From assembly GCA_964187785.1 (NCBI GenBank), contig OZ076409.1, positions 51,710,001 through 51,774,000 of the forward strand: a stretch of DNA of 64,000 bases. The letters run 5' to 3'. Positions 8,258 to 36,075 of the stretch are shown piece after piece. This DNA is from Amphiscolops sp. MND2022 (taxonomy: Eukaryota). Under the pieces are notes generated by a model, which saw only the letters and a program-made list of their open reading frames with translations, searched no databases and was not told the origin of the DNA. Made by a program: the position numbers and the translations under genes. Numbering within the stretch: position 1 is the stretch's first letter; every line of letters begins with the position of its first letter.

Positions 8258-8313
8258 AGCTGCCTTTAGTCAAGCAGCGTAATCTGAGTAAAATGGTAAA
8301 ATGATCATTCAGC

Positions 8314-10476: not shown

Positions 10477-10767
<291 letters not shown>

Positions 10768-13538: not shown

Positions 13539-15548
13539 TTAGGAGCAATGTTCCTTTACGTGCATCCTATAATTTTCCATTGTCTTGAAATTAACATTGG
13601 ATACGAGTGTCGCGTGAACATTAATGTTGCTGTTGAAGTTTAGAGTTGATGTTTTGTCAACTTTGAATTTCAGGGACGTAATGACAGCTGTTCCATCCGC
13701 AACTTTGTCCCATTCGTTGCCCAATATGTGGTCCCATGCTGATGTTGAAAAAGGGCCGTCGTCTTCTTTGATGGAGAATGTCACTGGGCCATTTGTGACA
13801 CCGAACGCGTGAATCGTCGCATCAGTGCAAGGGGCAAAATCTTGCTTGATGTCTTTGACTCTGCTGCGTCCACTGAGGGAATTCATCAACAAGTTTTCAG
13901 GTTAGAATATGCCCAATACACTAACGCATGGTCGTCGTATAACGGCGCGCCAGGTGCGTTTTCAACTGCTCCCAGTCTTTTTTTCCGGAGATAACTTACA
14001 GGGACTGTTGCGTTGAAGGAAGGATCGTCCTGTTTTTCGACTTCTACGAGAAGTTTCGTCTTTAAATAGTAAATAGAATTAATCTTCCAATCGCAGCCCA
14101 AAATTTCAACAATGTCTCCCTTGATGACGACTCCGGTGCTGATGGGGACACAAACTAGTTCTTTTCGTTCAAGTGGGGTACTTTTGAAACTCTGGGAAGG
14201 TCCACCAATTATGGCCTGGTATTGCATCAGGATTACCCGGGCCGAATAATTTATCGTAGTCACTATTCCAAAGTTTAAAAAATATTAGAAAAATGTTTGA
14301 AAAGTACTACAACTAACCCATTGAACCTATTTTGGTTGGTGATATGCAAATGATAATAGGTATTTTTGCCAAAATTGAGAACTCAATTCGCTTCGGAAAA
14401 ACTGAGGATAAAGCACTTCGGAAACTTTTCCTAGTAGTATTGTCAAAAAGATTAATGTATTCTACAAAAAAAAATTAAATCAACTGTACGTGCTTTTTCT
14501 CGGGAGGCTGCCAACAACTTGCAACGTTAAACTTGCAATCATTCAACCCTCATAGTCTAGCTAAAAAATAGTTGTACCTCTGTTAAAAAAATATTGAAGT
14601 AGTATTTTCGGTAAGCCTGCTTTACATCAATTTTAGTCTTCTTTTTAGGCATCTTGGCGGGGATCGTGGCCTCTATTCCGCGGGTCACCAACACCGTGAC
14701 TTTTTTGTCAAACACCGTCTTTTTGTCGCATCTTGAAGTAACGTGTTCTTCGTCAGATTCATCCGAGGACTCGGAGTCCTCGGGTTCTTCGAATTTCACT
14801 TTTTTGAAAACGGATGCTGCTTTTGTGACGATTCGCATCGAAGCTGGTAGTATTTGATGGGGACCAAATTCACATTTTCTAGCTGTTCTTCGAAAAAAAC
14901 GTTTTCCTCTATTGGTATCACAACTGGCGATATCAACATTTCTTTACGGAAGGGATCGTTTTTCATTACGAAACCTTCTTCGATGTCCCCTATGTGTCGT
15001 ACGCCGTCTTTAGCATGGGCCAGTGTGTAATGAACTTTATCGATTCTAACACGTTTTTCTTTCATGTAGCCCAGAACATCAAGGCTCAGTGTCAGTTCAA
15101 CGCTACGGCTGTAGCTTGGAATTGGCGTTTCGTTCTTTCGGATGGGCCATTTCTCTGGAAAGTCGTGGAATTTTGGGGGTGTTCTAACAACTCCTGCTGC
15201 ATGTTTTGAGTTGTAATCTAACCATTTGACTTTCGCCTGGAAACAAAAACGTTTTAAAATGTAACTCATTGAACAAAATTCATTAGCAGTAGTGATATTT
15301 CTGAAAGCAACAAATGGCAAGACTGAAAATCGAATATCTCTAAAACAACAGCGATTTCTGAAAAAAATTATGAGGATGAAAGTTTCTTAGATTTTCATGT
15401 ATGTTTATTTGAAGAATATAGGATGAAAATTTAATACCTCATGAGTTCGGTGAAATTCGGTGACGTAGGCTGATCGCCAAAGTCCACATTCTTCCTCGAA
15501 ACATTGCAGGAGTTCTCCGACTTTGAAATTTTTCGAGAATGTCTGCAT
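13539..15548 (-). pseudogene. Spliced gene with N-terminal Tudor/chromo-barrel (Royal family)-like domain and acidic stretch; frameshifted downstream
   Basis: Exon 15548-15438 (MQTFSKNFKVGELLQCFEEECGLWRSAYVTEFHRTHE) splices in phase 0 to 15236 (AKVKWLDYNSKH); frame changes near 14840 and 13890; linkage of the 13539-14263 ORFs is uncertain. Confidence 0.55.
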
Positions 15549-16371
15549 TGTCTGTTGTTTCGCACTCGGTTCAAGACTCGGTACTAGTAGTGGGTTTAAG
15601 AGAACTAAATTCAGTGTCTTTGTAGTGAAATGAGACTAATATTATGTTGCTCTAAGCAAGCTAAGTTAGCAAAAAGACTTCAACTTGAACTGACTTCAAC
15701 AAAAATTAGAATAACTTCAACTTAAACTTGTCACAGCCGCAAAACCAAATTGGGTTAAATTGGTCCAGAATGATATACCGGCCCGCGGGCGTTAATTTGA
15801 ACCAATATGGTCAAAACTTAGATTTTCGGATAATCAGTTGAATTGCACAATGGAAAAATTAGTCTATTTAATGATGCTATTCATTACTATCCAATTTATA
15901 GTAATGAACGATGCCTCCTATGATGGGGATGACCATCATTACAAGGCCCACTTCATCCAATATTCAATCTTGGTTGAAACCTAAACCACAAAACCAAATT
16001 GGGTTAAATTGTTCCAGAGTATTTTGCCGGCCCGGGGGCGTTAATTTGAACTTGATTTTCGAATAATGATAATTATGAAGTGATTAGATAATGATGCCCC
16101 GTCCTGGCTGACTTCAAGTCACGCTGATAAGTCACGCTTTAAGTTACGCTGATTGACCATCTTACGCTGCATGACTGAAATCCATTCTACCGGGAAGTGT
16201 CTCGTTATTACATCGTAAAATCGAAAAGGGAATAAGTTTTTGAATTCATCATTTGAAATCAATTCCTCGTCAAGTTCAGACCTCAATTTTATTCAAACTT
16301 CTCAACTATATTGTTGCAACAACCAGTTTACTAATCTCTTGAATTCGAGAATCAAACTGAAATTTTCCAAA

Positions 16372-19300
16372 ATGCTCGATGCTTCTTTTTCTCAAACAAC
16401 ATCTTCCCAAACTTCGGTCAACATTGCTATCGAGCAAATTATTGCCCGTCATTTGAATGATGATGGAATTGTACAAGAAGTTATCCATGAACTCGCGCCT
16501 CCTCCTGTTCTGACAAGTCAGATATCTCATCCTCACGCTCAGGCTGATATATATGACTTCGTTCCATCGAACTCATCAATGCCAGCAGTAATCGCCGAAA
16601 ATCATACAGGTTCAACATTTTTTGGTACTTTAAAACGTTTATTGGGCGCATTATACTTTTTCCCTCGGCTATGTGTCGTCTGTTGATAGTTCCAGTTACG
16701 TAGTTACACTCAGTGTCAGTAATTTGCATAATTCTAAATAAATGTCGCACTATGTCAGATAAATTTTACGGAACAAAGTGCTCTACATAACTGGGTAGCG
16801 TTCTAAAGTATTGCAAATCCATAATAATACTTGACTATATACCACAATAATAAGTTGAATAATATCCATAATAAGTTGAATAATACTTTCTGAACAAGTT
16901 TTGGTCAAACATTTGCCGTCGAGAATGATCCTGCCGAATTAGTAATTAGTAAACTACAAAATAAACATGATTTCAGTTCAATTCGCAGTGTGTATATAAC
17001 TGAAATCCTGAGTGATTTCACTGGAATAATTTTATGCCTTGTAATGGAGCTCACACCAGGGACCAAAATTTTGAAATCAATCGTAGAACATCGAAATTGT
17101 TTTTGTGAAAAACGGATGTTTCCAACTGAGTAAATTATTGAGCTAAACAATCAGTGTAGGATAAAAATAGTTTTTTTTAGATAACTGAATGCAATCAATT
17201 TTTTCTGAATTTCCTTGGATTTATATGCTTTCTCTTATTTAAAAAAAAAACAGATTGATTTCAAAAATCAATTAGGTTTCGGTAATCAAATGTTTCTTGA
17301 TTGGCAGAAAATGGCATGTTTATTGTATTTAAGGTTATCAAACTCCATCATGGAAACCCCCAGGCCCCAAAGAGCAGCTTGAAAATTCTAGTGTCCCGCT
17401 TCAAACACGCCCAGAGGGATTGAATAACCCCCATTCAACACCACATCCGAACCATGCGTCATCAACGAACTTCGCCGCTCCATTGAGCCCGATCGACGCG
17501 GTCAATTCCAACGGGAGCAACTATGATTCTCCCCTCGAACTTCAGCCAGCGGCCCAGGATGCAAATGGTCGTGGTGAACTGTTGAGCGTCATGTCAAAAT
17601 GGGCAGAAGGACGCTCTCATGTCGAACATCTAGTGGAAACTAACCGTGTTCCTCAAAAAGAAGGAGCCATGCTTGTGTTCCAGTCGCTCGTGATCATCTG
17701 GTGTGTCATCAACAACTACCCTGCCCGACTTCTCAAGAAGTTCACTGTGTATGACTTTGTGAACTTCGTCAAGAAAGGAAATGGTCAATATGTTTGTGCT
17801 GTGACTGATGGAAACAAGTACAAATTTAGGAGGGCTTTAAAGTTCAACGAGTTCGAGCAAAAAGTGATGACTTTCTATTTCAAACGTGTTCGCCCATTTT
17901 GGATAAATGCATTCGATGTTCTGAAAGACAGTTTTCTCACAGAACCCTTAGATTTGACTCTGCAAGAAGTAACACAGTCATTTTTTTATAATTCACTAGG
18001 GAAAAAGCAATTGAATGTTACCAGAGTTTGTGAGAACTTTCAAAACAAAATGAATGCAACCCACAGGAAGCCGAAAAGAAGACTCATCTACGAGCCAACT
18101 ACAACAATTCTCGAAAATGATGGAACTGTTAGTTCAACAGTGGAAATGATATCGCAGGCAACCAAAACGCCACCAAACAACACCCCCGATTCTGATTCAG
18201 CAGCTCAAAGACAGTTGAAGCCAGTGGAGATGACTACGATGTCCCCGACTTCAAAAAAACAACTGTTCTACTCTAGTGATAGCTTTACCAGTCTCAATTC
18301 AGTAAGTTAAATCTTTTAGTATCCATCATTACGATACTCGTACCGGTATGCTGCTGTCAGTCAAGCAGCGCAATCTGAGTAAAATGGTAAAATGGTCATT
18401 CAGCGTAAGTTAGTCAAGTATGGAGTAGAACAGATGATCGTGCGCACTGAAAAGTTATTGGATTGAATTTGGTCCCTGCCATGAGCACAGCTGAAAATTT
18501 TTATTCAATAAAAATTTTTTCAGCTGTTCTCATGGGAGGGACCAAATTCAACCCAATCAAGTTGATCCTCAGGAGTTGAACTTGATTGGGTTGAATTTGG
18601 TCCCTGCGATGAGCACAGCTGAAAATTTTGGACTGAATTTTTTGGACTGAAAAAGTCCACATTGCTCGAGGTGAACAAAACTCCTACAAAACTCTACTAA
18701 AGTAGTTAGTTTATGAAATTTTTCAGGTGAAAAAATTTTTCATTCTTCCGAATAATCCCGAGGACACTATTCCGACGCCGGCCGAATGCAGGGAAGAAAT
18801 CATGAGAAGAGTTTGCATTGATGCGGCAGCAGCAAAAAACCTCGGAGGACGTGTGAATGACCACTTGCGCTACAAACTCGTGAATTTGCGTGTCCAAAAA
18901 ACCATTAACTTCTTCCATGGACCGACTCAACCGTCCCGAGATTGCGTAGCAAAATTCGTCCGCAATCGTGGTTGGTCGGATCACGCAAGAATTGTCGACC
19001 AAGCGATGATAGCGTGGAAGCCTGCAAATAGTGATGTTAGACGAATCACTAGACGTACAGTACCTGAAGTAATTCAGACGGATCTCGGAAGAGGCGTGTG
19101 TATGTTTTTTTGCAAGCTGACATCAACTTTTGTGAACACCTCAAAAATACAAGAGTACATCTGTAACCAAGAGTGGCCCTTCCTCCAAGTTCGTGAAAAA
19201 ATATTGTTCGCGAATGGTTCTGTCGGCCGCGGAGTGGTCACAACTGCCTCAATCAAAGAATCGGAAATAGTTTGTGACTACCACACAGACCTTGTCATAG

Positions 19301-19734
19301 ACCAGGCACTATTACGAGAACGTTCAAACACGCAGTATGTTCTTGACTGTGGTGATTTTGTGCTCGATGCTACTGCCGAAACGTGCAAATGTCACCCTGG
19401 TAGAAGATCGTTTGGACGTCTCCTCAACTACAGACCGAGCAACAACCAAGAATGTAATGTGAGAATGAAGCGGGCAAATATCGGTGGCCAAGATGTAGTT
19501 CTGTTCGTTGCGAAGAGATCCATCGATGTCTTGGAGGAACTCTGCTTCGATTACAATGATGCAGTTTGCAGGGCAGAGTTTTGCCAGCAACTTTCCAATT
19601 CCTCGGGTGCCTCATGGTCCACACAGACCCAAGGAACATCTACCACTGGCAGTGAATCTGAGCGAGAGACCTCTACTACTACTACTAGTAACTCTCAAGT
19701 GACCGAGACGCCTGGAAGTCCTACCCTCTTTTGA
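16372..19734 (+). CDS. ~737-aa protein: tyrosine-recombinase-like region + C-terminal SET domain (SETD8/PR-Set7-like)
   Basis: Exons 16372-16609, 17334-18301 and 18727-19734 join in frame; SET motifs GRGVVTT, DY, LDAT, FGRLLNY, EELCFDY; YR-like VCAVTDGNKYK...YFKRVRP...FFYNSLGK. Confidence 0.8.
18327..18418 (+). repeat. Internal 92-bp copy of the transposon left end (TIR + subterminal repeat), in an intron
   Basis: 85/92 identical to 8236-8327. Confidence 0.9.
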
Positions 19735-20347
19735 AACTTGAAGTGTAATCATTAGTGAAGATGATCTTAGTACAGTAGCGTGATTTTAAAAAAAATGCCC
19801 GGCCTGCCTCTACACTAAGCGTTATCATAAATGATCGATTGCATATTTGCTCAATTTCAACTGATTATATATTTTCAACACTTTCAACTGATATCATATT
19901 TCAACATATTTTCAACTAATAACTCATTTTCAAATAGTTTTTTTTACCGAAGACAGTATTTTTCTTCCTTACATGACGATGATACGTATGATACTAGTGG
20001 AGTCTCTCATAAATTAAAAAAATGTTTTCAGGACATCCAAAGGAGTTTTTTTTGAATTTTTGAATTACGTTTCGAGTTACTTGGTTTTTTTTCTCTGAGG
20101 TTAACGCTTTATCGCATAACGAGACAACCCGGTAAAATAGGTTTCAGGCACGCAGCTGTATGATCTCGGACATTTCAAAAAGTCTGTCGGAAGTTTGCAA
20201 TTTGTTTTTTCTTCTTCTACCGTGACGGTCACTTCTGGTGGCAATCATAACTTTTGAAATTGTTTTCATAATCATTAAGCCAGTATCATCGTTTTTGTGA
20301 TTTGTTGCTGGTTTCTTGCTTAAACAGGTTTTGTATTTCAGATCGAA

Positions 20348-23300
20348 ATGATACAAAAACCAATCATCACTTATGCTGGCATCAATTACGTGAAACTCAC
20401 ATTCCTGAACGTCTTGTTCCCGAATGTGTTCCTGCTGGAAAGCAATGACTGCCTTCTTCCCAATGATCGCAGAAAGGCTACAGATTTCCTCAAGAAGCAT
20501 TTAAAAGGTTTACTTTCTTTCCTTTTTTAATCAAAAACATAACTAGATATCGTAAACGTAATCGTACAAAACGTGGTTGTGAGATGTAAGGAATGCACTT
20601 GAGCATAGCATTGTAGTTGATCGTTCGTGGCACGTTTTGATTCATGATTGTTGCAGGACTGAACGTAAACTTCTCTGATGTATACAAGCCCCATGGGATC
20701 AAAGAAAGATGTCCTTTGTTGCGCGAAGACGTATTCGATTTATTGATAATATCTGCACCTCCATCATTGATTCCCTGGACGACTGAAAGAGTTGGCTATA
20801 TACGACAATTTTTCCCTTCGTTGCCCATTCCAGACTCAACCTCTTTTTTAACAATTCAAGTTGACGCTATTTTTTCACAACAGTCATTGGAAACAGGCGT
20901 TTCGCTGCAGAATTTTTGGAGCTCTTCTTTGAAGACTATATCAGAATCAGAAATTGCATTGGGTCAATTTATTGAAACTCTCAAGCAGTTTTTCACAAGT
21001 CAAACTTTGAAAATCAAGAAAAAAAACACCTTAGTTCATAAACTTCTTCATCTATTTCTGCCAAACTTGTTTTGCCTTGAAAGGGAAGACATTCAAATGG
21101 AGATTCAATGCCTACTTACTCTCAGTAATCCTCAGGATCTTTTAGTCAAAATACGTCGACTTATACAATGCCCTTTCATCAAATCCACCATTCTCCCTTC
21201 AAGACGTGAACTTCAAGCAATCACAAATAAATTGAACGAAGATTTCAGATTAATACTTACTCCCAGAAGAACCCCCACTGGGTTCCGTGTTAATCTTGTT
21301 TCATTTGTCAGATTCGTTGCCTGCAATTTGTATAACAAGACCAGCTTAGTCGGCTTGAGAGTCGACATTTATGGTGATGCAATGTCTCGGGGGAAAAAAG
21401 ACGTCGTACGAATGGCCTTCCGAATTTTGCAAAGCGGCATCGAAACTGAGCAATCCTCAACCCATGTCTTCACGTTTGCTGTGTTTGAGGTGAGTCGTTC
21501 AAGTTTTAATCTAATTTTAACTTTATTAACTTGATTTTAACTTCATTCTAACTTGATTTCTATTGTGAGCTACATCAAAATGTTTATTGAGAACCTAATT
21601 TTGGTCCCTGTTGTGAGCTACACTTAATAGTTTAGTGGTAACGCGAATCTAAATTTGGTCCCTGTCGTGAGTTACACTTAAATGATTACTTAGTAGTTGG
21701 AAAACCAATTTGGTCTGTCTTGAGCAGCACTCAATTGTTTTGTTGATATAACTCTAAATTTTTCCCTGTTGTGAGAAACTGGAAGTTGAAATATGAATTT
21801 TTGGAATGTTTCCCAGGGTAAAGATGTGCGAATCAACCTGGAATACAATCTCGCCATGTCAGAAGTGCTTGGACGCCCTGGATGGCTATACAACGAAACA
21901 AAGGCCTTGCATGATGAAAGTGCTATACTGAGTTGCTCGGGTGATTCACCATTCCAACTGCGTCTTTTAAAAGGTGTTAGCAGTGATGTCTCTTGTCTGT
22001 CAAAGATGTGTCTTTATGTCAGTGATCCTGCAGATATTTCGAATCCACCAGTGAAACAGACAAAAAAAGACACCGCTGAATATAAGAAAGAAATGGAAGG
22101 AAGGGGGGTGATTCTTCCGTCAACTGTCGATTATGCTACTGGCCGAAGAACAGAACTGATCATTGACATCAACGAATGCATCCCAAAAGACTCTCTCATT
22201 TTTCTCAAATCCACTTTCAATACATGCCCTGATTTGCTGCATATGGTTGTCCGTTCAGTCGAAAGTGACTTGAAGTTGCATGTGGACTCGATGTTGCTGT
22301 TGAAAGACCATGCAGCAATATGTAGACTCGAATGTAACATAACGGAACGAAATGTGAAACCGCCGAGATTCAAGTTTGAGATCGCTGAAAAACTCTGCAA
22401 GGCTGTATCTCTCAGTTTCAGAGACGCCGAAGTCATAATATCCGACTGCAACAGAATCAGCGACTATGGCCGATCAGACTGCCCAATTTTTGAAGGTGTG
22501 TATTCATTCGAAACACCTCATGTCTACAAAGCTGACCAAACAACCTCTACAACGTCTTATAACGTGTTGATATCATTGGTTGATGGGTTGGAGACATCTT
22601 TCACAAAAGGAGTGGGTATTTCTGTTCGGAAACTGGCTGACCTCCAATTCCAATCTCTTTACCAGTTACTTGATTTGCTTCGACAGAGAGAATTCAAAGA
22701 CATTCAAAAGTGTAAAGATCTCTATGAGATTTATTACCAGTCAACTTTATGTCTTTTCGGTGATCGTGCGTTGACGCCATACAAATTGAAACTGGATATT
22801 TTACTCAGACTTTTTGAGAAGGGTGAGCTTCTGTCTCCATTTTATTACATGACAGAAGGAACTGAAAAAAGCCACCACACGGCAGCCAAAGACTACAATA
22901 CGAAGACAATGCGTGATGGTGACAATGATGCTTGGAACATGTCATCCTGTTATCTCGATATTCAGTTTTCCTTCTACCGTGCAATTGATTTATGTTCTTC
23001 AAAGTCTTCGACACTTGAATCTTACCGGAAGTTGTATGGAAAAACCGACGTGACAAAGACGTATCTTGAAATTTGCTGTGAACCCATTCCAGAACCTGAA
23101 CTTGACTATCTTAGAACTGAAGACATGTTTAGAGGTATGCACTTTGTCATTCTTGGAACATATGGTCACCTGAAAGAAACTCAAGCGAGTCTTGAGAAGA
23201 AGATCACTGAAAATGGAGGAAATGTTGTTTCCAATGTAGACATCATCAACAGAAGCAAGCTGAATTTTTTGAGCCATCACTATTGCATTTTACCAAATCG

Positions 23301-23643
23301 AAATTGTATCGACGCATTCATTAAAGGTCAACAAGGTAAAGAAAAAGCTGCAACGAAGGCGCTTTCCAATACGATACTCGGTAACTGGATTTACTTGAAC
23401 GCTGAATTTGTAATCGCCTGTGTACAGAAGAAGTCTTTGATTGATCCCAAAGGCTATGTTTTTGAAGTAGATGAGTCTGCGAGAGCCAAATTCAAAACGA
23501 TGAAGTACATATCTATGGCCCCACAATTACAACGTCAATCAAACCCCCTACGACATGGTTCATTAACTTACCACACAGCAATGCGGAAGTACAAGAACGC
23601 ACTAAAAAAGGCCACATTGAAGAGAAAACTAGACGACGTTTAA
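20348..23643 (+). CDS. ~939-aa RAG1/Transib/CMC-like DDE transposase with C-terminal BRCT domain
   Basis: Exons 20348-20507, 20657-21489 and 21817-23643 in frame; candidate D (YGDAM), D (VSSDVS), CPDLLH, TPYK and E (TEGTEKSH); BRCT pattern FRGMHFVILG...IT-NGG-VV...FVIACVQKKSLIDPKGY. Confidence 0.75.
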
Positions 23644-24304
23644 TACCTAAAAACTTACTTATTTTATTACTAATTCAGTAGACAAGGTCCATTTGACCGC
23701 TTCATTGTCAATTCAGTGCTATCTACTAGGTGATTCAAATTTGGTACATTTCTTAGAAGCGAAAATGCTTTCACACATTAAAAGTGAGAACGAAATGACT
23801 GGTATAGACGTATATTTTTGATGGTTCAAACCATCTTTGGTTGAAAATGTGATTACGTAATTTGATCTTAAATCTAAATGAATGACAGAAAAAATTGAAC
23901 GATTATCAGTGCCTTGCTTACAAATATTTTATGTTATAATTTAAACTTATGATAGATCTATGATGATAGATTGAACCAAATATTCGCAATTCAACTTATA
24001 CTTCCATGGTATATCTTTTCGCCGTGACGTTTTCTCTGAAAAGTTCATCAGTCGAAATTTTGATCCCCGTCGTGAGCGCAATATTTAACTGCATCGAGTT
24101 TACATTCCCTCTGTTACCTTATTTACTATTGAATGATCTATGACAGTTGTCTCAGGAATGATCTATGAGGACGTGTGACTTCCTGGAATAGTGTGACTTG
24201 TTGTGAGTTGTTGGATGTATATATTTGACAATCATTTTATAGTTAATTTCATACAATATTGATTGGTGTATAACTTATGAGCGAATTTTTTCAGTTGATA
24301 TCAA

Positions 24305-27300
24305 ATGGCAACACTGCCGACCACGCCATCAACGTCTCGTCGAACGACACCAGCGAAAGTCCCATGCGGCCAAGGTTCGATAACAATTTTTTTGTGATCA
24401 AGCTGTAACGTAATCAAGCTGTAACTTTTTTTCACGGAAAAGTTTAATCTGACATATGGCATTCCTTTTAGGCACTTGTGACGTTGTGGACAAGCTGTCC
24501 AACATCCTACGCCACCGCAAAGTCTGTCCCCGAATGCCACGAGAGCAGTTCAAGCTCATGGAGAGAACGTGCCAGCTCTGCGGCCAGATCATTTCCGCCA
24601 AAAAACTGCTGAAGAAGCACTACAATACAAAGTATTGTAAGGAGCAGCAAAAGCGGAAAGCAGAAGGCCTGCCTACCCGAATGTACCAGTACGGTTAGTC
24701 ATTACAATGTATGTTAAAAATTGATCGACTTGTAACATTTTAAACTCAATGATTTTGAAAAAAAGTCTAGGTCTCAAACAAAAAGTGTGTTTTTATTCAT
24801 GTAACTTCTATGTTACAGCAGCTGCAAAAGGCTTGACGCGGAGGCCTAACTTATGCTACGGCAGAGGTTGTGGCAAGTCATATGTTTACCCTTATGACTT
24901 GCGCGTGCACCTTTTGAAGAATCCTCAATGCCAGGAAGGAGCGAATGTGAGTGCCTGTCCTATTTTTTTCTCTTTAAGAACACATGTTGAATGATTTGAT
25001 TGACCATTTGACTCTCGAAACGCCGTGTTTTAAACGGTGACAATGTGACTGGAACTCCGAATGAGTCATTTTATCGTGGCAACTGTTTAGGCTGCAGTAT
25101 CTTTGGGCTCCGATTCGTCTACTAGTAGCAACACTGACGAGCGATTCAGGCCAGAAGATTTCAACCACATTCCTTCTGATGTGTTTGGGTCTGATGGATT
25201 TTTCAAGTTCGCGATGGAAGTGCCCCTCGACTACAAGTTTCCTGTAGCTCAATGGGAAGGCAACGTTGACGACCATGTCGTCAAATTCAATTCCCTGATG
25301 AGACACAGTGTGCCTCTGTTGTGGCGTGGAGGTGTCAACCATTGCCATGGTTTGAAGCTGCCTCAAGTGGAAGAACTCGCTTTCACTCAAGTTGTCCAAC
25401 AGCTTCTAGTCCCCCAGAAGCTACAAGCAAGTGCAGCAACCATCAATGTCAAGTCGGCAAAACTTGGAGAAGTAAGTCTTTGGTAGAATTACTTTCAATT
25501 TGAAGCTTGTTTTTTTCGTAAAATATCTGGAACAACTGCAATTTGATCCCTGTCGTGAGCTCATTTTCCAACTTGGACAAGTCTTTGGTAGAATTACTTT
25601 CAATTTCAAATTTTCAAGTAATGCTTCAAGTTGAAGCTTGTATTTTTCGTAAATATCGAACAACTGCAATTTGATCCCTGTCGTGAGCTCATTCTCCAAC
25701 TTGGGCAAGTTGAATTTGTCGAACAACTGCATTTGAACTATTCTAACAATGAGAAAGTTGTCCGTCTTATTCCCGTCTTAGTCACTTTATGATCATTTCA
25801 TTTCAGAGTCGTGACCTCAGTCTCGACGAGTTCAAGCAGGAGCTCATCAACGCCGACAGAAGCAGCGTTTACTATCCTTTAAACGCTATAGACATCGCCA
25901 TGCAGCCAAAGGTAAACAACATTGAATGAGCTCCTTTGATTTGATGGAAAACGCAAATCCAGTGAAAAACGACTTTTCTTTTATTGTTTTCCCCAACCCC
26001 CTGTTTGCTAGTAGTTGCGTACAAATTGGACTTTGAGGATTTTATTCAACATAATGCACATTGTTTTGAAACAACTTCAACTTATATTGATTTTTTTGTC
26101 TTTTCAGTCCATCTACAGCGTGCCAACGATGATAAAAAAGTCGTCAGTGAACCACCTTGTGGACGAGCTGGTCAGTAAGTCAGCAGAACCGTTCTCAGTA
26201 GCGACTTCATACTACTTGCTGATCTCCAACGATGGTTGTCAAACAACTTGGCACACGGACTTCAGTTCAACATCTGTCTTTTATACAGTCTTGACTGGGT
26301 CCAAGACCTTCTTTCTGGTTGCGTCAACTGAAAACAACATGAAGTTGTTCAATGCCTGGTCCAAACAAGAATCCGACGACATGTGAGTTGAATTTTTTCA
26401 CCAAGGAATTTCAGCTTTTGTGTTCATCTATTTTTGTATTTTTGCATCATTTTGCATCACGGGCCATCATTTCCGTACGTGTTTTCATTGTATTTGCGAA
26501 ATTTTCAACTTTCAATGCACTATATTGTTTTTGCATCGCCGAATATTTTAAGAATAGTCGCTTAGAGTTCCAACAGTTTTCGTTTTAGGCCAACATTTTT
26601 TGGATGCCACAAAAGACTGGAGGGGGGTTGCCTCAGGGTTACTCTTAATCCGGGCGACGTTTTCGCCATGCCGTCTCAGTACATCCATACAGTCCTCACA
26701 AGTGGAGACTCTGTGGCAATAGGGACGAATTTCCTTTCAGAAGGTCATTCGAACCAGTTCAAAAAGGCGATCATTGAAGAAGACTCCATCAGGGAGCATG
26801 AGAAGTTTCCGGGCATGTTGGAAATGCTAGCTACTTTGATGCTCAAAGCATCAGAGAGATGCATGATAACTCCGGACTTCCTTCGTCTTCACAGAGCCAT
26901 TGAGAATCGATATCAAGAAAGTGAAGCTGTTGCTGTGAGTTGTATTTTTTAGTTCACAATCGTTTAGAATCAAACTAAGTTATCGAATTAAGTATTTGTA
27001 TAATGAAGCAGTGTTGTGACTCACAACAGGGACCAAAACTGAAATTGGTAATCATAATGAATAATGTTGATGATGACGTTGTGGCTCACGACAGGGACCA
27101 AAATTAAAGGTGGTAATGATTACCAATTTTAATTTCGGTCCCTGTCGTGAGCCACAAGGTCATCATCAACATTATTTGTTGATGATCAACAAAGTTGATC
27201 AAATAGCTTGGTGAGTTATCACGAGTTTTGTTTCAGATTTGCCCCGAATTCAGCAAGGAGAGACTCGTTTACAATATTTGCTCGCGCAAAGACTTCGTAA

Positions 27301-27863
27301 ACGATGTTCATGTCACTGCTTTCACGGAAACGGCCTCAAAAAGGGCATATCTTCTTTGCCCCAAGCCTTGCTTCAGAAGGAGGAACTGGTTTACAAACGA
27401 GGACGGCGTGAGGGTCCCGAAGGAAGCAATTTCTGAGGAGCGCCTCACTTTCTTGTGCCGAAGACCTGATGTTGACGAGCCGAATCGTGATGTTTTGATC
27501 AGCTATGAGGAAGCCATCACGTATGTGCACCCGCGACCGTCACAAACAGTAAGAGCTTTGCACAAAATGCCGAAAAGAAAAACCCTCGTTCAAGACCGTG
27601 GTAAGTTTGCTTATTTTAGTTACATCCTGGTTGTTTCGTCTTAGTATACATAGTGGTAATGTAAGTGATGATATTCAAAACTGGTCACCTGGTTGAACAT
27701 CCGTAAGGCTTACATTTGATTTTCTTATTTCCTAAAAAGACTTCAAAATGAAATTAATGGAGTGGTAATCGAATTCAATGTTTTTGTTTCAGAATTCAGA
27801 CCATCTACTGATCGTTACGTTGCTTCGATCATGAGCCACCATGTCCCTGCATACAGCTTGTAG
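24305..27863 (+). CDS. Nine-exon gene: three C2HC-type zinc fingers + JmjC domain (KDM2/KDM7-like putative histone demethylase)
   Basis: Exons approx. 24305-24374, 24472-24693, 24819-24946, 25091-25471, 25807-25911, 26108-26382, 26589-26934, 27237-27600, 27792-27863 with GT-AG introns; TTWHTDFSSTSVFYTVLTGSKTF and MPSQYIHTVLTSGDSVAIGTNFL. Confidence 0.85.
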
Positions 27864-28031
27864 TTGCGTACAGACTGAGTTGTGCTTAAGAAGTTCTCGA
27901 TCATTGTTAACTTAACATGTTGAACTTTCTTGTCTCCGAGTTATTTGTTGTGCTCAGTAAGTTGTACACTGTGGCTCGGTATAAACTTGTAGCTTGAAAA
28001 ACTGCTCTAGATTTTTCGAATGACCGTCAAC

Positions 28032-28391
28032 CAGGGGTGTTAAATATTGCATTGCAATACTATTGCAATACTAATAAAACAATCTTTTGTTATTCTGAAT
28101 TTTGTTGAAACAATAATTGCAATTATTGTGTCTATGAAAAAGATTGTTTGAAAAACCAATCAAATCAATTTGTTGATCAAATTACCATCTGAAAATTGTT
28201 CGTTGATCATTATTAGTTTGACTGAAAAGTCCGCCAAATTGGAAGTATTTGGCACCCAACTCATGTCTCCGAATTCTTTCCTTATTGTGAAAAATCAACA
28301 ATGTATTGTATTTGATAACGTTCTGAAAATAATTATTGTATACAATTTTATTGCAATTATTGTGACCTAGAATTATTTTTTAACACCCCTG
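28032..28391. mobile_element. hAT-type MITE
   Basis: TIR CAGGGGTGTTAAA/TTTAACACCCCTG, 8-bp TSD CCGTCAAC. Confidence 0.9.
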
Positions 28392-29723
28392 CCGTCAACA
28401 ACCTGGTATTTTTTGTTCATAGCAAATTCAGCAAAACATTCAGCAAATTATTACGGCAAAGTCCAATTACCTCATAGTCTAGTTAAAATCTTTATTTTAA
28501 CTAATCATTTCACGGTAAAAAAAATTGTTGTTGACCATTATTCAATTATTAGGTTACTATTCATTCAATAAGTTAATGTGTACAATTTACCTTCGATTTA
28601 TAGTGCATTCAAAGTTTGTACAGCCTTGATCGTTTGTAAGTTTGTAATGTTCTGAATTGTATCAACTGTGTTTTGGACAATTACTGTCGGAAATGTCGAG
28701 TAGTTGTTCCCAAAAAAAGAGGGACATCTACCGTCGGAAATATCGGGTGGTTGTTTCCAAAAAAAATATCAAATACCGTCAAAATCAATCATTGATGGCC
28801 GCCGGAAGTCATCGGGTCATCGGAAGGGAGTTTCCAATTAACTTCGCCTTTGTGCTCCCTTGCATCGTATGTTTTCTCTTTCAGTACAGGCCGAGTATGA
28901 ATAATAGAAGCAAAAGCCTCTTTGTTAAGGAGAAAAACAGTGTTTAAGGTTGTTTAAGAATAGAAAAACGGTCAAACGTCCCAATTCAGATTCAGTTGTC
29001 TGTAACTTTTTCAATTTTCGTCTGAAAAATTTCAACGTTAAACTAATGTAAACTAGAAGAAAATTTAAGAATAGTTTCCTTCTGACAATTTTACAAATTT
29101 TCAATCGATTCCGAAAAAATCGAGCCTGAAAATGCTCGGGGGGTGTTTTCCTAATCACAGTACTAGAGCTCTCAACCAATGAAATGAACATGTGGGCATC
29201 AATTAGCCAATGATATCTATTCGTTCGTTCCGCCGGCGGCTGCTGTTTTTCAAAAGTTGATAAAAGTACTTCAAGTTGACTCAAGTTTGTTATGTTTGCT
29301 ATAGACCAAGACTCAAGTTATTTTAATTTTTCTTGACGCAGCTCGGAGAAGCAACATAAATACAGGTTACATTTTGATCCGTCGTGAGCAAATATAAAAC
29401 AGAGTTGCTAAACCATATTTTAAGTTAAGTACCAGCTCTGAGAAACTGTCTCTGTTTTCAACCACAGTATCCTTCTTTTCTTAGGATGTGTTTTCAGAAA
29501 GAAAACAACTTTCATTGAATATTGTATTTTGAATACAAAAATAGCACCAGTTTTATAATGGAATTTATGAACATTATAAAATCACAAAAAAATAATTGAA
29601 AATAAAAAATTTATCTCTTGTAGAGCAAATAAATAATGAGTTTTGAAACTTTAAAGTTTCAAAAATAGTGGAAAAGTCGTTGAAATCGTTTCAACAAAAC
29701 TTCGAGTCCCTCGGGTTCAGACA

Positions 29724-30107
29724 TTATTTCAGCCTGAGCAGGCATCCTTGTTTCCTGCAGAGTGGGCACTTCACCCAAAGGGCACGATCAGTGCTTTCCC
29801 TGTGAATCACAGTGATCAAAATTTTCGAACGATATCTAGAATGAGTTTGTTTTGTAACCACGTGTGTACCAAAAATTTCAGGAATACAAAAATGTAAAGG
29901 ACACGCCTCAAAAAATTGATCAGTGAAAATTATCAGAAAGGAAAAGTGAAAACAGCTTCAATAACAATTTTTCAAAGCAAAGTTCTGTGAAACTTACCTC
30001 TCAAGCACTTTGATCCAGGCTTGACGGCACTGATTGCATATCGCGTGTTTATCATGGAGAATCCAAAAACGCGAAAAGATCTTCTCTCCACAGACAGCGC
30101 AAAGCAT
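29724..30107 (-). CDS. Spliced RING-finger-like protein (not in ORF track); may extend upstream to ~30235 across a frameshift
   Basis: Exon 30107-29998 MLCAVCGEKIFSRFWILHDKHAICNQCRQAWIKVLE joins in frame (gtaagt...tctag) to 29835-29724 RYRSKILITVIHRESTDRALWVKCPLCRKQGCLLRLK*. Confidence 0.7.
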
Positions 30108-30607
30108 TTCCAGTTGGTTAATGTGTTTCAGGTGGTCAATAAGTACAATGATTTTTGAAAAGATATATCAGTCTTGTCACACGGTTGTTTGAAGATCGAA
30201 TGGCCAACAATCGGCCCGGGACATATAGAACACATCGTACGAAAGATTTGAACTTTATTTTGTCATTATCTTGTTTCTATGTACGAACAACTGGCTTTGT
30301 TTCATGACTTGACAACTTGCAAGTCCTTTTAATCCTTTCACTAAGTAACCACCTAGTTAATTTATAACCTCTGTACCTGTAACAAATAACCGTCTCCACT
30401 TATTATTTGGTTTAGTAAACCAACGCGGTACTTCGGTAGTGCCACTTTCATTCATTTCAAAATAAGATGATAGTCAAGATGATTCTTTCATTTCAGTTAT
30501 TATGTCGATATAATTGTATTTGTTTCAATGGTTTCAAAAAATGAAATAATTATTACTTTACAGAATTGAATGACGTACATATGTATGTTTACAAAGTTTA
30601 TGGAATT

Positions 30608-30803
30608 AACAAAGTTCATTCATTTATCACTACTAAAAAATTAATAACGTACATATGTGGTTTTGATCCCTGTCGTGAGCAACATCAAGTTGTAACAAAT
30701 AGTCTAACAAAGTTCATTCATTTATCACTACGAAAAAATTAATAACGTACATATGTGGTTTTGATCCTTGTCGTGAGCAACATCAAGTTGTAACAAATAG
30801 TCT
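30608..30803 (+). repeat. Two tandem ~98-bp units containing the 20-bp motif, related to the 191-bp direct repeat and to 34315-34395
   Basis: AACAAAGTTCATTCATTTATCACTAC...TTTTGATCCYTGTCGTGAGCAACATCAAGTTGTAACAAATAGTCT twice. Confidence 0.8.
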
Positions 30804-31403
30804 ATACGAATCTAAAACTCTGTTTGTGTCTAAAACTCTATCAATCTGAAATGTCTATTCCAAATCTCCAAGTACTTAAACGATTATTTAATTACCACTG
30901 CAGTAAATTTAGAATTGAGGCGTGTTGAATAAGGACAACTGCCAGTGAAGGTGCCACAGGCTGTTCAGTGAAGGTTTGTCGAAAACTGCTGAGAAGTGCT
31001 TACACCGTGTAAGCATTAATTAACACCATTAACACCGTGACGATTAAATAATTAATACTGCAGGAAAGGGTAGATTTGAGGCATTTTAATTATGACTATT
31101 CAAATTTTGTCGATAACCGCAGCAAAGTCTTTACACGATTAACTAATTACAATTACGAATTGAGGCTTTCTAATAATGATTTCTGAATTTCTGTCGAAAA
31201 CTGAAAAGTCGATTCAGTCAAACCTTTTACAACGATACTGTCAACTTGCTTTCATATCTCTCGCAATCATCAACTTCTGTTTTCATCAAATCTTAATTTC
31301 ATAATCAACTTCTGAACTTGTCAAAAACAGCAAAGTCGAATCAGTCAATTCTTTCGCATCAATATTTTCAACCTTCTTCCTCTCGCAATCATCAATATCT
31401 ATC

Positions 31404-31865
31404 ATGTTCGATCCCGCAGCAATGCCAATCAGGTCGTGTATTCGTCCAATAGATGAAATGATCTCAAACTGTGGACCACCACACAGAAAAAATGTGCGTT
31501 TTGCTGACTCAGCACCAATCTCGGTCTCAACCACCAATCAACTTGAAGCAACTCCCACATATCCGAGAGCTTGGAGAATCAAAAGAAGGGCACCCATTCC
31601 TGAAACTCCAACTCCACTGGCACCCACTCTAATGCACCCACTCCACTCCACTGGCACCCACTCCGGGAACAAAAAAGCAGTCACTACGGTAGGATCAAAA
31701 ACAGTGAGGTTCTCTTTCATAGAAAGGGCTGTATCACCGAATGGAGAAGTATCAGAGTCAGTCATTTCCTTCAATGACTCGGAAACCAATCCTTGTGACG
31801 AATACTGGAAACCTGGGGCTCTCGACGACAGGCCGTACATAATGAACTGCCGAACAACACGATAG
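31404..31865 (+). CDS. 153-aa Pro/Thr-rich ORF with two RVxF-like motifs
   Basis: ATG-initiated ORF, GC-richer than flanks; RKNVRFADS and SKTVRFSF. Confidence 0.5.
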   Translation: MFDPAAMPIRSCIRPIDEMISNCGPPHRKNVRFADSAPISVSTTNQLEATPTYPRAWRIKRRAPIPETPTPLAPTLMHPLHSTGTHSGNKKAVTTVGSKTVRFSFIERAVSPNGEVSESVISFNDSETNPCDEYWKPGALDDRPYIMNCRTTR

Positions 31866-31946
31866 AATTTAAAGTTATTATTCTGCTCTTCTAGTACAGT
31901 TGACACAACTGTACTAGAAGAGCAGAATAGTAATTTTAAATGTAAC

Positions 31947-32312
31947 CAGGGCTACCGAAAAAATAATGGATCAAACCATTATCTTTGATAAATAATTTAT
32001 TTCTAGTATATTTCCATTCAGAAAATTTATTTCTGTCATTCGAAAAATACCATAATTATTTCGGAATTTTCCATTATTTTAGAAATAAAATGATCTACAA
32101 AGCAAATAAAGGCGACGCTACCACCAAGGCAGCTTGCCGTATGTAGGCTATTGTAAATTTCTAACATATGCAAAATTATTTCATATAATTTAAAATTATG
32201 GCCATAATTTATTTATTTGAGAAAATATTGTTATTTATGGGCATTAAATCTAAAATAAATCTATAAATATAAAAATAATGAAAAAAACTAAAAGAAGTTT
32301 TCGGTAGCCCTG
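31947..32312. mobile_element. hAT-type MITE
   Basis: TIR CAGGGCTACCGAAAA/TTTTCGGTAGCCCTG, 8-bp TSD AATGTAAC. Confidence 0.9.
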
Positions 32313-32371
32313 AATGTAACATCGGTTCTAAAATCATTTCTGAATGTGGACGAAACAGTTTGGCTTCAGTA

Positions 32372-32742
32372 CAGGGGTGTTCATTATTGTATTGTAATTT
32401 AAATCTAAGCCTACGAAAATCAATAATTCAATTTTCCACAAAAATCAATAATTGAAATTATTGTGCTCAAAAACAAACTGATGAAGAAACTTAAATTGCT
32501 CTGCGAACTTTGAAAGTTTCTTTCTATAATAAGTCATCATAAATCTCGCTCGAGAGGATTTTTTTCAAGTAACCAACTTTTTCGATTTGTTAATGTTACA
32601 CTGCAATTAATAATTTCCCCCACAGGATTACGAGCAATCAATAATTGTTGGAAAACAGAGACGTAAAATCAATAATTGTAATTGTTTAACTTAAATTGAA
32701 TTGCAATAATTGTTCTTTGCAATAATTAATTGAACACCCCTG
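32372..32742. mobile_element. hAT-type MITE (same TIR family as 28032-28391)
   Basis: TIR CAGGGGTGTTCA/TGAACACCCCTG, 8-bp TSD CTTCAGTA. Confidence 0.9.
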
Positions 32743-32976
32743 CTTCAGTATCTCAGTATCGGATGCGAATTTTACCTCCGGGGTAAAATTCGCATCCGAT
32801 ACTGAGATACTGAAGCCAAAACTGTTTCGTCCAATCAGATTTTAGAACCAACCAACGAGTCGTCATCTGGAAGGACAAATTTTTCTGATGATCAACTTGC
32901 AAAGCGAACAAAAGATCGGTCGTCTCGACACGAACTTCTAGACCTATTACACAGTCTGAAATCCAACCTGTCAAAC

Positions 32977-34220
32977 TTGAAAGCGAATGGTCAATGTGTG
33001 AACAACTTCTTGACTCAAGGACGACCTTCGGTGGACGAAATTGAAGATCTTTCCTACCCACTTGAAGAATGGATGGAGGAAATTGAACCCTTGGTTTCCC
33101 ACTTCAATGCCCAAAACTTCGCAACCCTCAGTGAGGAGAATTTGAAGCAAGAACAAAACAAATGCCTGGAACTTCAAGAAGGTGTTCAAGCTCAGATAAT
33201 CTCAATTGGCAAGTTACAGAAGAATATGTTGAGGCCTTGTACAGTAGTGATATTATTAAAAGCAACAAAAGGCAAATCTCAAAACCGAATATCTCTAAAA
33301 CAGCAGCGATTTTTGAAAAATGATAAAGTGAAAGTTTCTTAGATTTTTATCTAGTTTACAAATATGTTTGTTTGAAGACTATGCGATGAAAATTGTAGAA
33401 GTTACGATAGGCCATTTTTAGCCAAATTTAGGTCAAAATTGAGGTTTTTCTCACTTTTGGGCTACTTTTCCCCAAAATTTTTGAAAAAATTTTTGTTCAA
33501 TTGACCCCCCTGATTTAACTGAAGCTCCTGATATGTTTTGATTTAGAAATCATCTTAAAATCGTAAAGAAAATGCGCTGTAAAATTGAACTTTTTCGAAA
33601 ATACATGTATTAAGATACGATTTTGAAATATAACCACTTAAAACAAGCTCGTACTAATACAATTTACAAAATTTTCGAGAAAAAATTATATTGTCAGATT
33701 CAAAATGTTTGGGAGAATTTTTCTGTTAAAATTGTTTTGAAATCAAAAAATTGTAAGTGGGTCAAAAATTCAAAAAACTAAAAAATGATGTTTTGGAAAT
33801 CGCTCTCGACCAATGAAATGAGCGCGTGAGACATTATTTAGCCAATGAGATTTGTTTATTTGCTCTCTTTCCGCGTGCTTTGTTGCTTAATAATATAGTT
33901 GTTGTAGTAATAATAATATCACTACAGTACAAAACCATTCAAAACTCACAGATTCAGAACAGCACCCAAGATAACGAATCAGTGGCTAGTTTGAGCGACC
34001 GCGTGATCGGAATCATGAACAGATACAACGCCATTTCTTCCAACGTGGAGGAAAGAGCGCAACAACTGTATTTCGACATAGAGGAGTCCTTACAGGTATT
34101 GAGATTGTGATTGTTATGTATCCGAAGAAACTGAAAGAACAGCTGAAGAATCTATCGCAAGTTAGAACAAATCTGGAGGACACCGGTGCCGAAATTGACA
34201 AGATCAAGGCCAACGCTGAG
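32977..34220 (+). pseudogene. Coiled-coil-like coding remnant disrupted by a MITE and a frameshift
   Basis: Glu/Gln/Leu-rich frames 32977-33240 and 33928-34220 on either side of the TA-flanked insertion. Confidence 0.45.
33242..33927. mobile_element. TA-flanked MITE; partial second copy at ~15287-15430 in the intron of the Tudor-like gene
   Basis: TIR CAGTAGTGATATTATTA / TAATAATATCACTACAG, TA on both sides. Confidence 0.75.
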
Positions 34221-34634
34221 CAAATGTTGAAGAGTATTCCTCACAATCGAATTTATTATTTCGAACAATATATTGTCAATTCATGTTATTATTCATTTAT
34301 TAAATAAAAATATAATTGATATTATTCAATAAAAAATTAATAACGTACATATGTGGTTTTGATCCCTGTCGTGAGCAACATCAAGAAACGTTGTAACTGG
34401 AGTAACTATAAATTGAACAAGTAATTTTTGTCGGGCACAAATTCTGGCTGAGATTACAAATCTCAACGAAAAAAACTTTTGCCCATTTTGATGTAGTTTT
34501 AAAGAGGCTCTCAGTTTGGGGATCACATAGTGTCGCCCGTAACAAGACCCACGACGCGAACGTGGCCTCTGAAGGGTCTCAAAATCTAATTTACAAATTC
34601 TACAAAATTATACTAACTACACTTTTACAAAAAT

Positions 34635-34850
34635 TTAATTATACAAAATGCTATTTACAGGTAATCTACAGTAAGGACATCTAACAAGGTCTGCACTCGC
34701 TAAACTATCTAAATAGTGTTTTATACACTCTCTACAAGCTAAATGTAATTTATGTTCTAGGTGAAAACTTTGCAATTCTACTATTCTAAAGTTTTCGTAG
34801 CAGATCATGCATTCTTTATTCTTCGAAGCAGCAGCTTTCTTCACCCTCAT
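34635..34850 (-). CDS. 71-aa stand-alone RING-finger protein
   Basis: CMIC...H...HLACREC...CPYCR. Confidence 0.7.
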   Translation of the reverse strand: MRVKKAAASKNKECMICYENFRIVELQSFHLEHKLHLACRECIKHYLDSLASADLVRCPYCRLPVNSILYN

Positions 34851-35417
34851 CGATTGGGCTATTCAGAATGTTGGCTGTTGATTTAGAATGGCGAAAGGAT
34901 AGAAGGAAGAATACGAATAAGAATGAAATTTTAAAGACTTGTAGAGATTTTAGAGATTTGTATAGAGCGAGGGAAGAAATGAGTGACAAAATGAAAGACT
35001 TCACGAAAAAGTTTCAATTTCGTAAATCCTTTCACGAACCATGCCGGGACTGAACGAAATTTTCACCGATACCGAACACCTGTGACGTCATAATTAACTG
35101 TATTGCATTTCTGATGCGCGCTAACCTTTCAGCTATATCGCCTTGAAAGAAATCAATTACCATTCGCAAATGTTGAAGAGTCACTCTTCAACATTTGCGA
35201 ATGGCCCATTCCCGGGGAATTGATTCCTTTCAAGGCGATATAGCTGAAAGGTTATAATAAATAAAAATAAATAAAAATAAAAATAAATGAATTAAAATAT
35301 ACAAATAATGAATTCGATTGTGAGGATTCATGATATTATTCATTTATTCAATCGATTAAAAATTAATTGATGTTTATTGATATTATTCAATAAAAAATTA
35401 ATAACGTACATATTTGG

Positions 35418-35608
35418 TTTTGATCCCTGTCGTGAGCAACATCAAGAAAAGTTGTAACAAATAATCTATACGAAGTTGAAACTTTATCAAACCGAAAACA
35501 GTAGTTTATGGAATACCGATCTTGAATTATTGAACTAAAAACGAAGTTTGGACCATGTGCCTTATCCTCCCTCAGATAAATACTGTTTCTTATCCAACAA
35601 CACCCCCC
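35418..35608 (+). repeat. 191-bp direct repeat, right copy
   Basis: Matches 8955-9145. Confidence 0.9.
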
Positions 35609-36051
35609 CATCCAAGACTTCCCAAACAAATGAAAGTAGGTCTCATAATGAAGGGGCGGTTGCTTCATTGAACTTGGTAATTTTGGTCCCTGTCGTGAGC
35701 ACTTCCTGTAGTCAGATTTACTGTTTATGCGATTTGATACTGTGTAGGCGAATCAAGCAGTGTAGTTACGAGTCGGCGTGTGTAGCTCACCAGTAAAAAC
35801 CCGTAATTGCCAGAATTATGTGTAAATATGAGATGCACAGTGTAGTTAGTCAAATTGCTTAAACTAGTCATATGGTGTAAGCTAGTCAATTACTGTACTA
35901 TCCAATGGTGTAAACTAGTCAACGTACGTAGCAAAATCAACGAGTGTAACGGCCTATCAATGCGCGTAATGTGAGAAAAGTGTAAAACTTCCAAAAAAAT
36001 ATTCGCGCTCTGATTGGACAAAAATCGAACTAGCAGGATCCTGCTAGTTCG

Positions 36052-36073
36052 TACCGGCATGTGTATCGTAATG
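36052..36073 (-). repeat. Right terminal inverted repeat
   Basis: Reads CATTACGATACACATGCCGGTA on the minus strand, followed by the GT TSD on plus. Confidence 0.92.
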
Positions 36074-36075
36074 GT

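Follow-up and report, generated by a model that had tools for sequence, protein, structure and literature searches.

Does a gene for a predicted demethylase that lies among repeats of a short DNA motif belong to its host, and what might such an enzyme recognize? The question is raised by a zinc-finger-JmjC (ZnF-JmjC) gene of Amphiscolops sp. MND2022, located at 24305..27863 (+) in a stretch of 64,000 nucleotides (GenBank assembly GCA_964187785.1, contig OZ076409.1, positions 51,710,001 to 51,774,000 of the forward strand), which is called the window hereafter and supplies the coordinates used below. The original prediction, made from the window alone, described this gene as having a non-host architecture and its product as the best candidate reader of a 20-bp motif. 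We found that the ZnF-JmjC gene is a conserved accessory gene (cargo) of a young, high-copy DNA transposon and not a host gene, and related transposon families were compared for what its fingers may recognize.

The ZnF-JmjC gene is carried by a high-copy DNA transposon

The gene is contained in a 27.8-kb element of family F1 (8236..36073) bounded by terminal inverted repeats (TIRs). The boundaries were set by alignment with six other copies, which have the same ends (CATTAC...GTAATG). The left TIR (8236..8260, +) begins with CATTACGATACAC and is preceded by the target site duplication (TSD) GT at 8234-8235, and the right TIR (36049..36073, −) is followed by GT at 36074-36075. A 2-bp TSD of variable sequence was present in 6 of 7 copies and then in 10 of 10 further copies (16/17). 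With TIRs, TSDs, dispersed copies, and a DDE transposase, the element has all the features of a cut-and-paste TIR transposon.

Exon 6 of the gene matched at least 150 places, with 84-100% identity, across all 13 large contigs of the 1.07-Gb genome; this is a lower bound, as 150 of 1134 candidates were scored and all 150 matched. These copies, inside elements bounded by TIRs and TSDs, contradict the possibility that the gene is an ordinary single-copy gene of the organism. In 24 other copies, drawn from match lists as a non-random sample, the ZnF-JmjC frame was intact in 11, broken in 7, and not fully mappable in 6, and the residues HTD, GSK, and YIH were retained in 10 of the 11 intact frames. 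The intact F1 copies diverge by only ~0.3-1.7% from the window gene, so the family appears to be young.

Gene structure and predicted protein

Nine exons (24305-24374, 24472-24693, 24819-24946, 25091-25471, 25807-25911, 26108-26382, 26589-26934, 27237-27600, and 27793-27863) join in frame, as had been predicted, into an open reading frame (ORF) of 653 residues with a single stop at its end. All 8 introns have GT-AG borders, all but one of the 12 splice combinations tried contained premature stops, and the splice sites are conserved in most other copies of the element.

The three N-terminal fingers were found where expected and are of the Cys2..His..Cys (C2HC) type. Finger 1 (residues 21-42; 24365..24527, +) is split by intron 1 and carries K(-1), N(+3), and R(+6) in its helix, followed by finger 2 (residues 57-79; 24570..24638, +) and finger 3 (residues 110-135; 24854..24931, +). 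In finger 1 of family F1, 11 residues separate Cys2 from His, one short of the canonical x12, and the Cys2-x12-His spacing and a zf-C2H2 profile match were found in families F2-F8. The Pfam zf-C2H2 profile gave E values of 0.056 and 0.0019 for the window fingers, which fell short of the cut-off, and 5.5e-8 for the F5 homologue.

The complete catalytic set is also in place. H351-T-D353, predicted Fe ligands, and K368 of GSK, the predicted 2-oxoglutarate (2OG) ligand, are encoded at 26252..26305 (+), and the distal His427 of YIH, the predicted third Fe ligand, at 26686..26688 (+). The domain thereby has the HxD..H triad and the 2OG-binding Lys/Thr of the KDM2/7 type; exon 6 matched PHF8, KDM2A, and KDM7A (E about 2e-8), and the best match of exon 7 was KDM2A (E 3e-4). 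No PHD, CXXC, or F-box domain was matched by Pfam in the scanned exon pieces (exons 2, 3, 4, 6, 7, and 8), in agreement with the predicted architecture.

Y338, F354, and N441 of the window protein are spaced like the KDM7B residues that confine the pocket to mono- and dimethyl (me1/me2) lysine. Considering this spacing, H3K9me3 is an unlikely direct substrate. According to the available text of one report, the pocket residues limit KDM7B to mono- and dimethyl lysine, the KDM7 substrates are H3K9me1/2, H3K27me1/2, and H4K20me1, and that of KDM2A is H3K36 (PMC13632499). The window protein is predicted to be an Fe(II)/2OG-dependent lysine demethylase that may act on histones, and its sequence cannot choose among these KDM7- and KDM2A-type substrates.

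A family-specific motif is dispersed in the noncoding DNA

The 20-bp motif of family F1, GCTCACGACAGGGAYCAAA, matched 19 sites in the window with up to 2 mismatches, compared with 0 in 100 shuffles, and had 2051 exact matches in the genome, compared with 0 for the reversed control. With up to 3 mismatches, 22 copies were found between 8861 and 35700, on both strands, none outside the element and none in the listed coding stretches. Coding stretches make up 36% of the element, and all 22 copies are noncoding; these are not independent, because many of them are tandem duplicates. The five copies noticed in the introns of the ZnF-JmjC gene itself were recovered, two of them in intron 4 (starting at 25541 and 25669; 25541..25688, +) within a local tandem duplication, and three in intron 7 (27019 −, 27084 −, and 27133 +; 27019..27152) within an inverted duplication.

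Isolated motif sites checked on contig 1 lay in element-like DNA in 20 of 20 cases (17 with matches of at least 96 bp, and 3 with matches of 41-43 bp), including 0.9-kb non-autonomous copies.

Each of the other finger-bearing families also has a dispersed motif, GATCATGMCAGTAARCAAA in F2, GCTCAAGMCAGTTYGTAAA in F3, RCTCACGGTGGATAC in F5, GCTCAYGGTTTAGAAA in F6, and GCTCVYGGAGTCGTTAC in F7, F8, and F10. The six distinct motifs have a GCTC/GATC half in common. The counts of a family's own motif per element were 21 for F1, 31 and 33 for F2, 8 for F3, 6 for F5, 26 and 23 for F6, and 17, 13, and 14 for F7, F8, and F10, respectively. The matrix of motifs by families was nearly diagonal, with one off-diagonal match in 12 elements. 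In the homologous intron of the transposase gene, F1, F2, and F3 each carry tandem copies of their own motif.

A second dispersed motif, of the GTGGAT/GGATTC type, occurs in F5-F10 and G4 and is the counterpart of subterminal GTAAGTTAGTCAA-like repeats in F1. These short repeats are clustered just inside both F1 ends (8316-8540 and 35840-35930), and this second motif class may represent transposase sites.

Related families and the host enzymes

The related families were found by searches with divergent transposases and JmjC exons. The transposases of F2, F3, and F4 are about 70% identical to that of F1, and those of F5-F8, F10, G4, and G5 about 30%. Families with mapped ends start with CATTAC and have 2-bp duplications (3 bp in one F6 copy), and the gene order is shuffled among families. 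The finger-JmjC gene was found in eight families (F1, F2, F3, F5, F6, F7, F8, and F10). HxD and K are conserved in 11 of 11 aligned families and in F5, and the distal H in 11 of 11; it was not assessable in F5, whose second JmjC exon was not recovered.

Between families, where this can be measured, the finger-JmjC gene is under purifying selection, as judged from codon comparisons. The pair F7-F8 gave a nonsynonymous divergence (dN) of 0.188 and a synonymous divergence (dS) of 1.49 over 320 codons. For F1-F2, the corresponding proportions of differing sites (pN and pS) were 0.31 and 0.78, with saturated synonymous sites, and F1-F3 was likewise saturated (pN about 0.3). The finger-3 segment was wrong for F2, F3, and F6 (4-11 codons); these rows were not used, but they are contained in the pooled F1-F2 figure.

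A separate JmjC gene of host type, whose introns are long and whose JmjC domain is preceded by a PHD-like exon, is located at C4:53.02-53.04 Mb; it was the only such locus noted among 112 scored of 1497 candidates, and others may exist. In the JmjC tree, this host gene and 15 cellular KDM2/7-type proteins formed one branch (support 99/98) that excluded all 11 element enzymes, which bears out the non-host architecture originally proposed. The tree comprised 34 rows and 95 columns, without F5 and 9 database proteins, which did not pass the extraction rule; being unrooted with two long branches, it shows separation and not the donor. Like KDM2A, PHF8, and KDM7A, the element enzyme has a JmjC core with HxD..H, K, and the Y/F/N pocket positions. 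Unlike the KDM2/KDM7 proteins, it carries three C2HC fingers in place of their accessory domains (PHD, or CXXC/PHD/F-box/LRR), belongs to a separate tree branch, and is borne by a transposon.

Seven JmjC proteins of other records (P0045, P0047, P0084, P0109, P0110, P0135, and P0147) also fell outside the cellular branch, with the element enzymes, and may be transposon cargo in other species. Related transposases were found in 13 metagenome loci, in two of which a Tudor-like gene adjoins, on contigs too short to reveal a JmjC gene. An F7-type JmjC gene is split by a long insertion (L093-L096; G000 C8:44.59-44.63 Mb), whose frames we take to be polymerase-B-like. We also observed a second multicopy element class, G1-G3 (L133-L141; G000 C12:43.88-43.91, C6:73.94-73.97, and C3:78.22-78.25 Mb), among 110 scored of 1472 candidates. 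It has no match to the F1 transposase. Its JmjC protein has one C2HC finger, a SET gene lies close by (by Pfam in G1; a SET-like tail in G2 and G3), and G1, G2, and G3 each have their own dispersed motif.

Fingers and motifs vary together among families

Three families bear on which protein reads the motif. F4 keeps the SET gene, the ORF upstream of it, and the transposase (~69% identical to that of F1), and the Tudor-like gene was seen in one of its loci; no JmjC gene and no motif were found in any of the four loci, in which the element ends were not located. In G4 and G5, none of the four gene types is missing, but the JmjC N-terminus has a different zinc module (one finger-like segment and a Cys/His cluster), and no GCTC-type motif was matched in the one copy of each. 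These states look like losses, because the deepest supported split of the transposase tree has the combination of fingers and motif on either side.

In the C2H2 base code, N(+3) and R(+6) read G-A. In all of the 7 families compared, finger 1 has both residues. The residue at -1 is K or R in the six families with a GAG motif and V in F2, the sole family with a GAT motif. The ZnF-JmjC fingers thus probably bind the family-specific motif, as judged from this comparison. The earlier proposal of a motif reader is supported in this part, by the presence of fingers and motif in the same families and by one site-specific change in both, but the motif is not special to the introns of the gene and is spread over the noncoding DNA of the whole element.

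Other genes and features of the element

The transposase gene (20641..23643, +) has two exons, with limits at about 21495/21811 placed by inference, and motif copies in its intron. It contains conserved D, D, and E motifs and a C-terminal BRCT domain. A model of the second exon, without the first, had a mean pLDDT of 58.6. By structure comparison, model residues ~49-358 matched BbRAGL (Z 8.9, root-mean-square deviation (rmsd) 4.8, 200 aligned), RAG1 (Z 8.2), and HzTransib (Z 8.1, rmsd 3.6, 158 aligned), and residues 441-562 aligned to BRCT domains with Z up to 11.3. On this model, the transposase is predicted to have a RAG1/Transib-type fold. A Foldseek search with the model returned BRCT rows only at E<=0.001 and no transposase match, and neither a PDB sequence-profile search with the transposase alignment nor a comparison with phage records gave a match. 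The CMCT clade is defined, in the available text of PMC12730594, by CA..TG termini, TSDs of 2-5 bp, and C(2)C and H(3-4)H motifs in the transposase. The present elements have such termini and TSDs, but the two zinc motifs occurred together in 0 of 17 testable transposases (neither in 13, CxxC only in 2, and H..H only in 2). The element therefore resembles CMCT transposons and is not filed as a member.

Upstream of the transposase is a KMT5A/SETD8-like SET gene (17333..19734, +), in which the SET ORF (18706-19734) and a conserved ORF upstream of it (17333-18310) probably form one spliced gene. Among solved structures, the SET domain is nearest to KMT5A (E 1e-6). The upstream ORF matched no Pfam fold, and a PDB profile search with its alignment was empty; we had assumed a likeness to a tyrosine-recombinase domain, for which the searches gave no support. 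On the minus strand, a gene at 13539..15386, conserved across the clade, likely encodes a tandem-Tudor protein. Its F5 homologue was modeled as two Tudor/Agenet-like barrels, with tandem Agenet/Tudor readers as the best, weak matches (E 1.8e-3; Z 8.0). Nothing was returned by Foldseek at E<=0.001 (best 1.8e-3) or by a PDB profile search of the alignment.

Further ORFs of the F1 element (16219-16686, 31305-31865, 32806-33342, and 33990-34307) had no Pfam matches, and homologues of the ORF at 31305 occur near unrelated loci. An internal copy of the left end lies at 18327..18418 (+), also in two other copies of the element; F1 has this one, and in F3 elements the 40-bp end recurs internally four times (L049-L054 and L225-L227). 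The element also includes a (TAG)n tract (10477-10775) and a small inverted-repeat insertion (28033-28392). It is inserted in a long terminal repeat (LTR) retroelement with gag, protease, reverse transcriptase, RNase H, and integrase (2449-8265, −, and 36074-36768, −), in which it interrupts gag, with an open frame going on at the far side. Outside the element are a 185-bp satellite (61150-62300) and a pair of 780-bp direct repeats 5 kb apart (42318-43091/47391-48172), which are possible LTRs.

Proposed mechanism and alternatives

We slightly favor a self-targeted anti-silencing mechanism, as in VANDAL/VANC transposons, in which reader and eraser would be parts of one protein. The ZnF-JmjC gene would be expressed, and the zinc fingers of its product would bind the family motif in the noncoding DNA of the element. 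Finger 1 may read the GAG/GAT triplet of the common half, and fingers 2-3 or a partner the variable half. The tethered JmjC domain would then remove repressive histone methylation from the element's own copies, with mono- or dimethyl lysine as the substrate (preferably H3K9me2 or H3K27me2, possibly H4K20me1 or H3K36me2). It may cooperate with the SET and Tudor-like proteins of the element and act in trans on non-autonomous copies that retain one or two motifs.

Several observations weigh against this mechanism or against the fingers as the reader. The motif of 19-20 bp exceeds the usual footprint of three fingers, the finger linkers are long and not TGEKP-like, finger 1 of F1 lacks one residue, and the contact residues of fingers 2-3 are unusual in F1-F3. 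The common loss was seen in no more than two or three events, and the change to GAT/V is a single event noted post hoc. As the ends of F4 were not located, a JmjC gene of this family could sit beyond the fetched DNA, and a 10-bp F2-like core persists in one F4 intron; G4 and G5 were seen as single copies and retain one finger-like segment. Matching at the level of families cannot by itself single out the fingers, because the genes of the element are inherited together, and several families have the second dispersed motif. Within F1, dN ≈ dS (~0.005), with no selection signal of its own, as expected of young copies. As for the outcome, a pocket of the me1/me2 type, as its sequence suggests, would leave H3K9me3 in place, and the net effect could be either opening or damping, because a KMT5A-like SET protein writes the mark that PHF8 removes.

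The excess of motif length over the three-finger footprint would also fit an active transposon demethylase whose motif is read by another protein, such as the product of the ORF upstream of SET, the N-terminus of the transposase, or a host factor, while the fingers contact a protein, RNA, or a different site. The upstream protein has no fold assigned to it, and more than one reader would exist, given the second GTGGAT/GGATTC motif in several families. However, F4, G4, and G5 keep SET, the transposase, and, where seen, the Tudor-like gene, yet have no GCTC-type motif, and finger 1 covaries with the GAG/GAT triplet, which makes such a reader unlikely. Alternatively, the motif could be a structural site for transpososome assembly (TnpA-like), with SET, JmjC, and Tudor proteins as a methyl switch on the transposase or on integration sites. 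Clustering of motifs near both ends, their persistence in short non-autonomous copies, the BRCT domain of the transposase, and the non-histone substrates of KDM2/7 enzymes (available text of PMC13632499) are in line with this idea. It is nevertheless quite unlikely, as motifs are also present in introns and spacers of the interior, as far as 14 kb from the ends, and G4 and G5, which are without the motif, have transposed with correct TSDs.

At least as unlikely is that the fingers bind the motif and the module damps the element, with KMT5A-like H4K20 methylation and KDM2-like H3K36me2 removal limiting its transcription and copy number. The resemblance of the SET domain to KMT5A and of exon 7 to KDM2A would suit such damping, as would, weakly, the ability of Tudor/53BP1-like barrels to read H4K20 methyl marks. 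Against it, the finger-bearing F1 and F5 are high-copy and young, whereas F4, without the gene, has few copies (about 7 close matches), and VANC, the precedent with the same motif behavior, is anti-silencing. An origin of the gene as an ordinary host locus, by passive capture of a host fragment, or from a virus can practically be discounted. The gene has normal spliceosomal introns, and JmjC genes are described from endogenized giant viruses in the available text of 10.1101/2024.01.08.574619. However, these origins are refuted by the dispersed copies within TIR/TSD boundaries and by the tree, in which none of the element enzymes joined the host and cellular branch. Purifying selection between families also opposes them, and no capsid, polymerase, or packaging gene was matched by Pfam among the long ORFs of the element; an origin from a Polinton or adintovirus was considered and dropped.

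Comparison with known systems

The closest precedent for self-targeted anti-silencing is VANC of the Arabidopsis VANDAL (Mutator) transposons, whose targets are family-specific short motifs in tandem copies in introns, spacers, and ends (available text of PMC5735166). Both systems have an accessory gene, noncoding motifs amplified in tandem, and related but different motifs in related families. According to the same text, no catalytic domain is known in VANC, and the route by which it lowers DNA methylation is unknown, whereas the F1 protein fuses JmjC to fingers. The VANC motif, as given there, is 8-9 bp compared with about 19 bp in F1, and the predicted transposase of F1 is RAG1/Transib-like. 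Neither VANC homology nor a Mutator transposase was found; no MULE (Mutator transposase) Pfam match was present in the ORFs of the element.

The giant Plavaka (EnSpm) elements of red algae, which carry PAG1-3, are 17-19-kb CMCT elements with a SET gene and, beside repeat arrays, a putative fusion of a DNA-binding domain and a 2OG oxygenase, for which self-modification is a proposal only (available text of bioRxiv 10.1101/2025.02.11.637652). Unlike the present protein, PAG3 combines a ParB-like domain with an oxygenase that is not of the JmjC type (HHpred E 0.29 and 0.016), and zinc fingers, a Tudor-like gene, BRCT, and family-by-family matching of motifs are not reported in that text. Fungal TET/JBP transposons and the SET-encoding HarbingerS/MuDR of Phytophthora likewise carry an epigenetic enzyme thought to counter silencing, and in the CMCT clade have CA..TG ends and 2-5-bp TSDs, but they act on DNA (TET) or are only writers; the word JmjC is absent from the main text of this report (PMC12730594). 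In Amoebidium, endogenized giant viruses carry a KDM4-like JmjC gene, also a multi-exon demethylase homologue on a selfish element with a proposed role in silencing evasion; it differs in its KDM4 subfamily, its viral context, and, in the available text, a JmjC domain only, without a targeting domain (10.1101/2024.01.08.574619). Epigenetic cargo of transposons (VANC, TET/JBP, SET, and SET with ParB-like/2OG) and JmjC in giant viruses are already known from these texts.

With Transib, ProtoRAG, and RAG1, the element shares the transposase fold match and the conserved D..D..E. The TSD of Transib is 5 bp. The element differs in its 2-bp TSD, the lack of C(2)C/H(3-4)H zinc motifs, the C-terminal BRCT domain, and the chromatin cargo.

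Implications

No transposon-borne zinc-finger-JmjC fusion with family-specific motifs was found in the literature searched; Repbase Reports, most subscription journals, and supplements could hold one. We tentatively propose that the elements represent an undescribed lineage with a RAG1/Transib fold, probably of animals, which carries a SET writer, a Tudor-like reader, and a JmjC eraser, and whose fingers coevolve with the DNA address of each family. It could be the first enzyme-bearing, non-plant counterpart of VANC, with a second element class, unrelated to the first, using the same device.

Here the targeting domain and a recognizable eraser are united in one polypeptide, and eight natural families provide pairs of fingers and motifs for direct swaps. 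If the proposed mechanism is true, it would explain how young elements of 20-40 kb reach hundreds of copies in the face of host silencing, and it would offer a natural finger-site code and a sequence-programmed epigenome editor. Moreover, hundreds of JmjC and SET "gene family expansions" in such genomes would then be transposon cargo and not host innovation.

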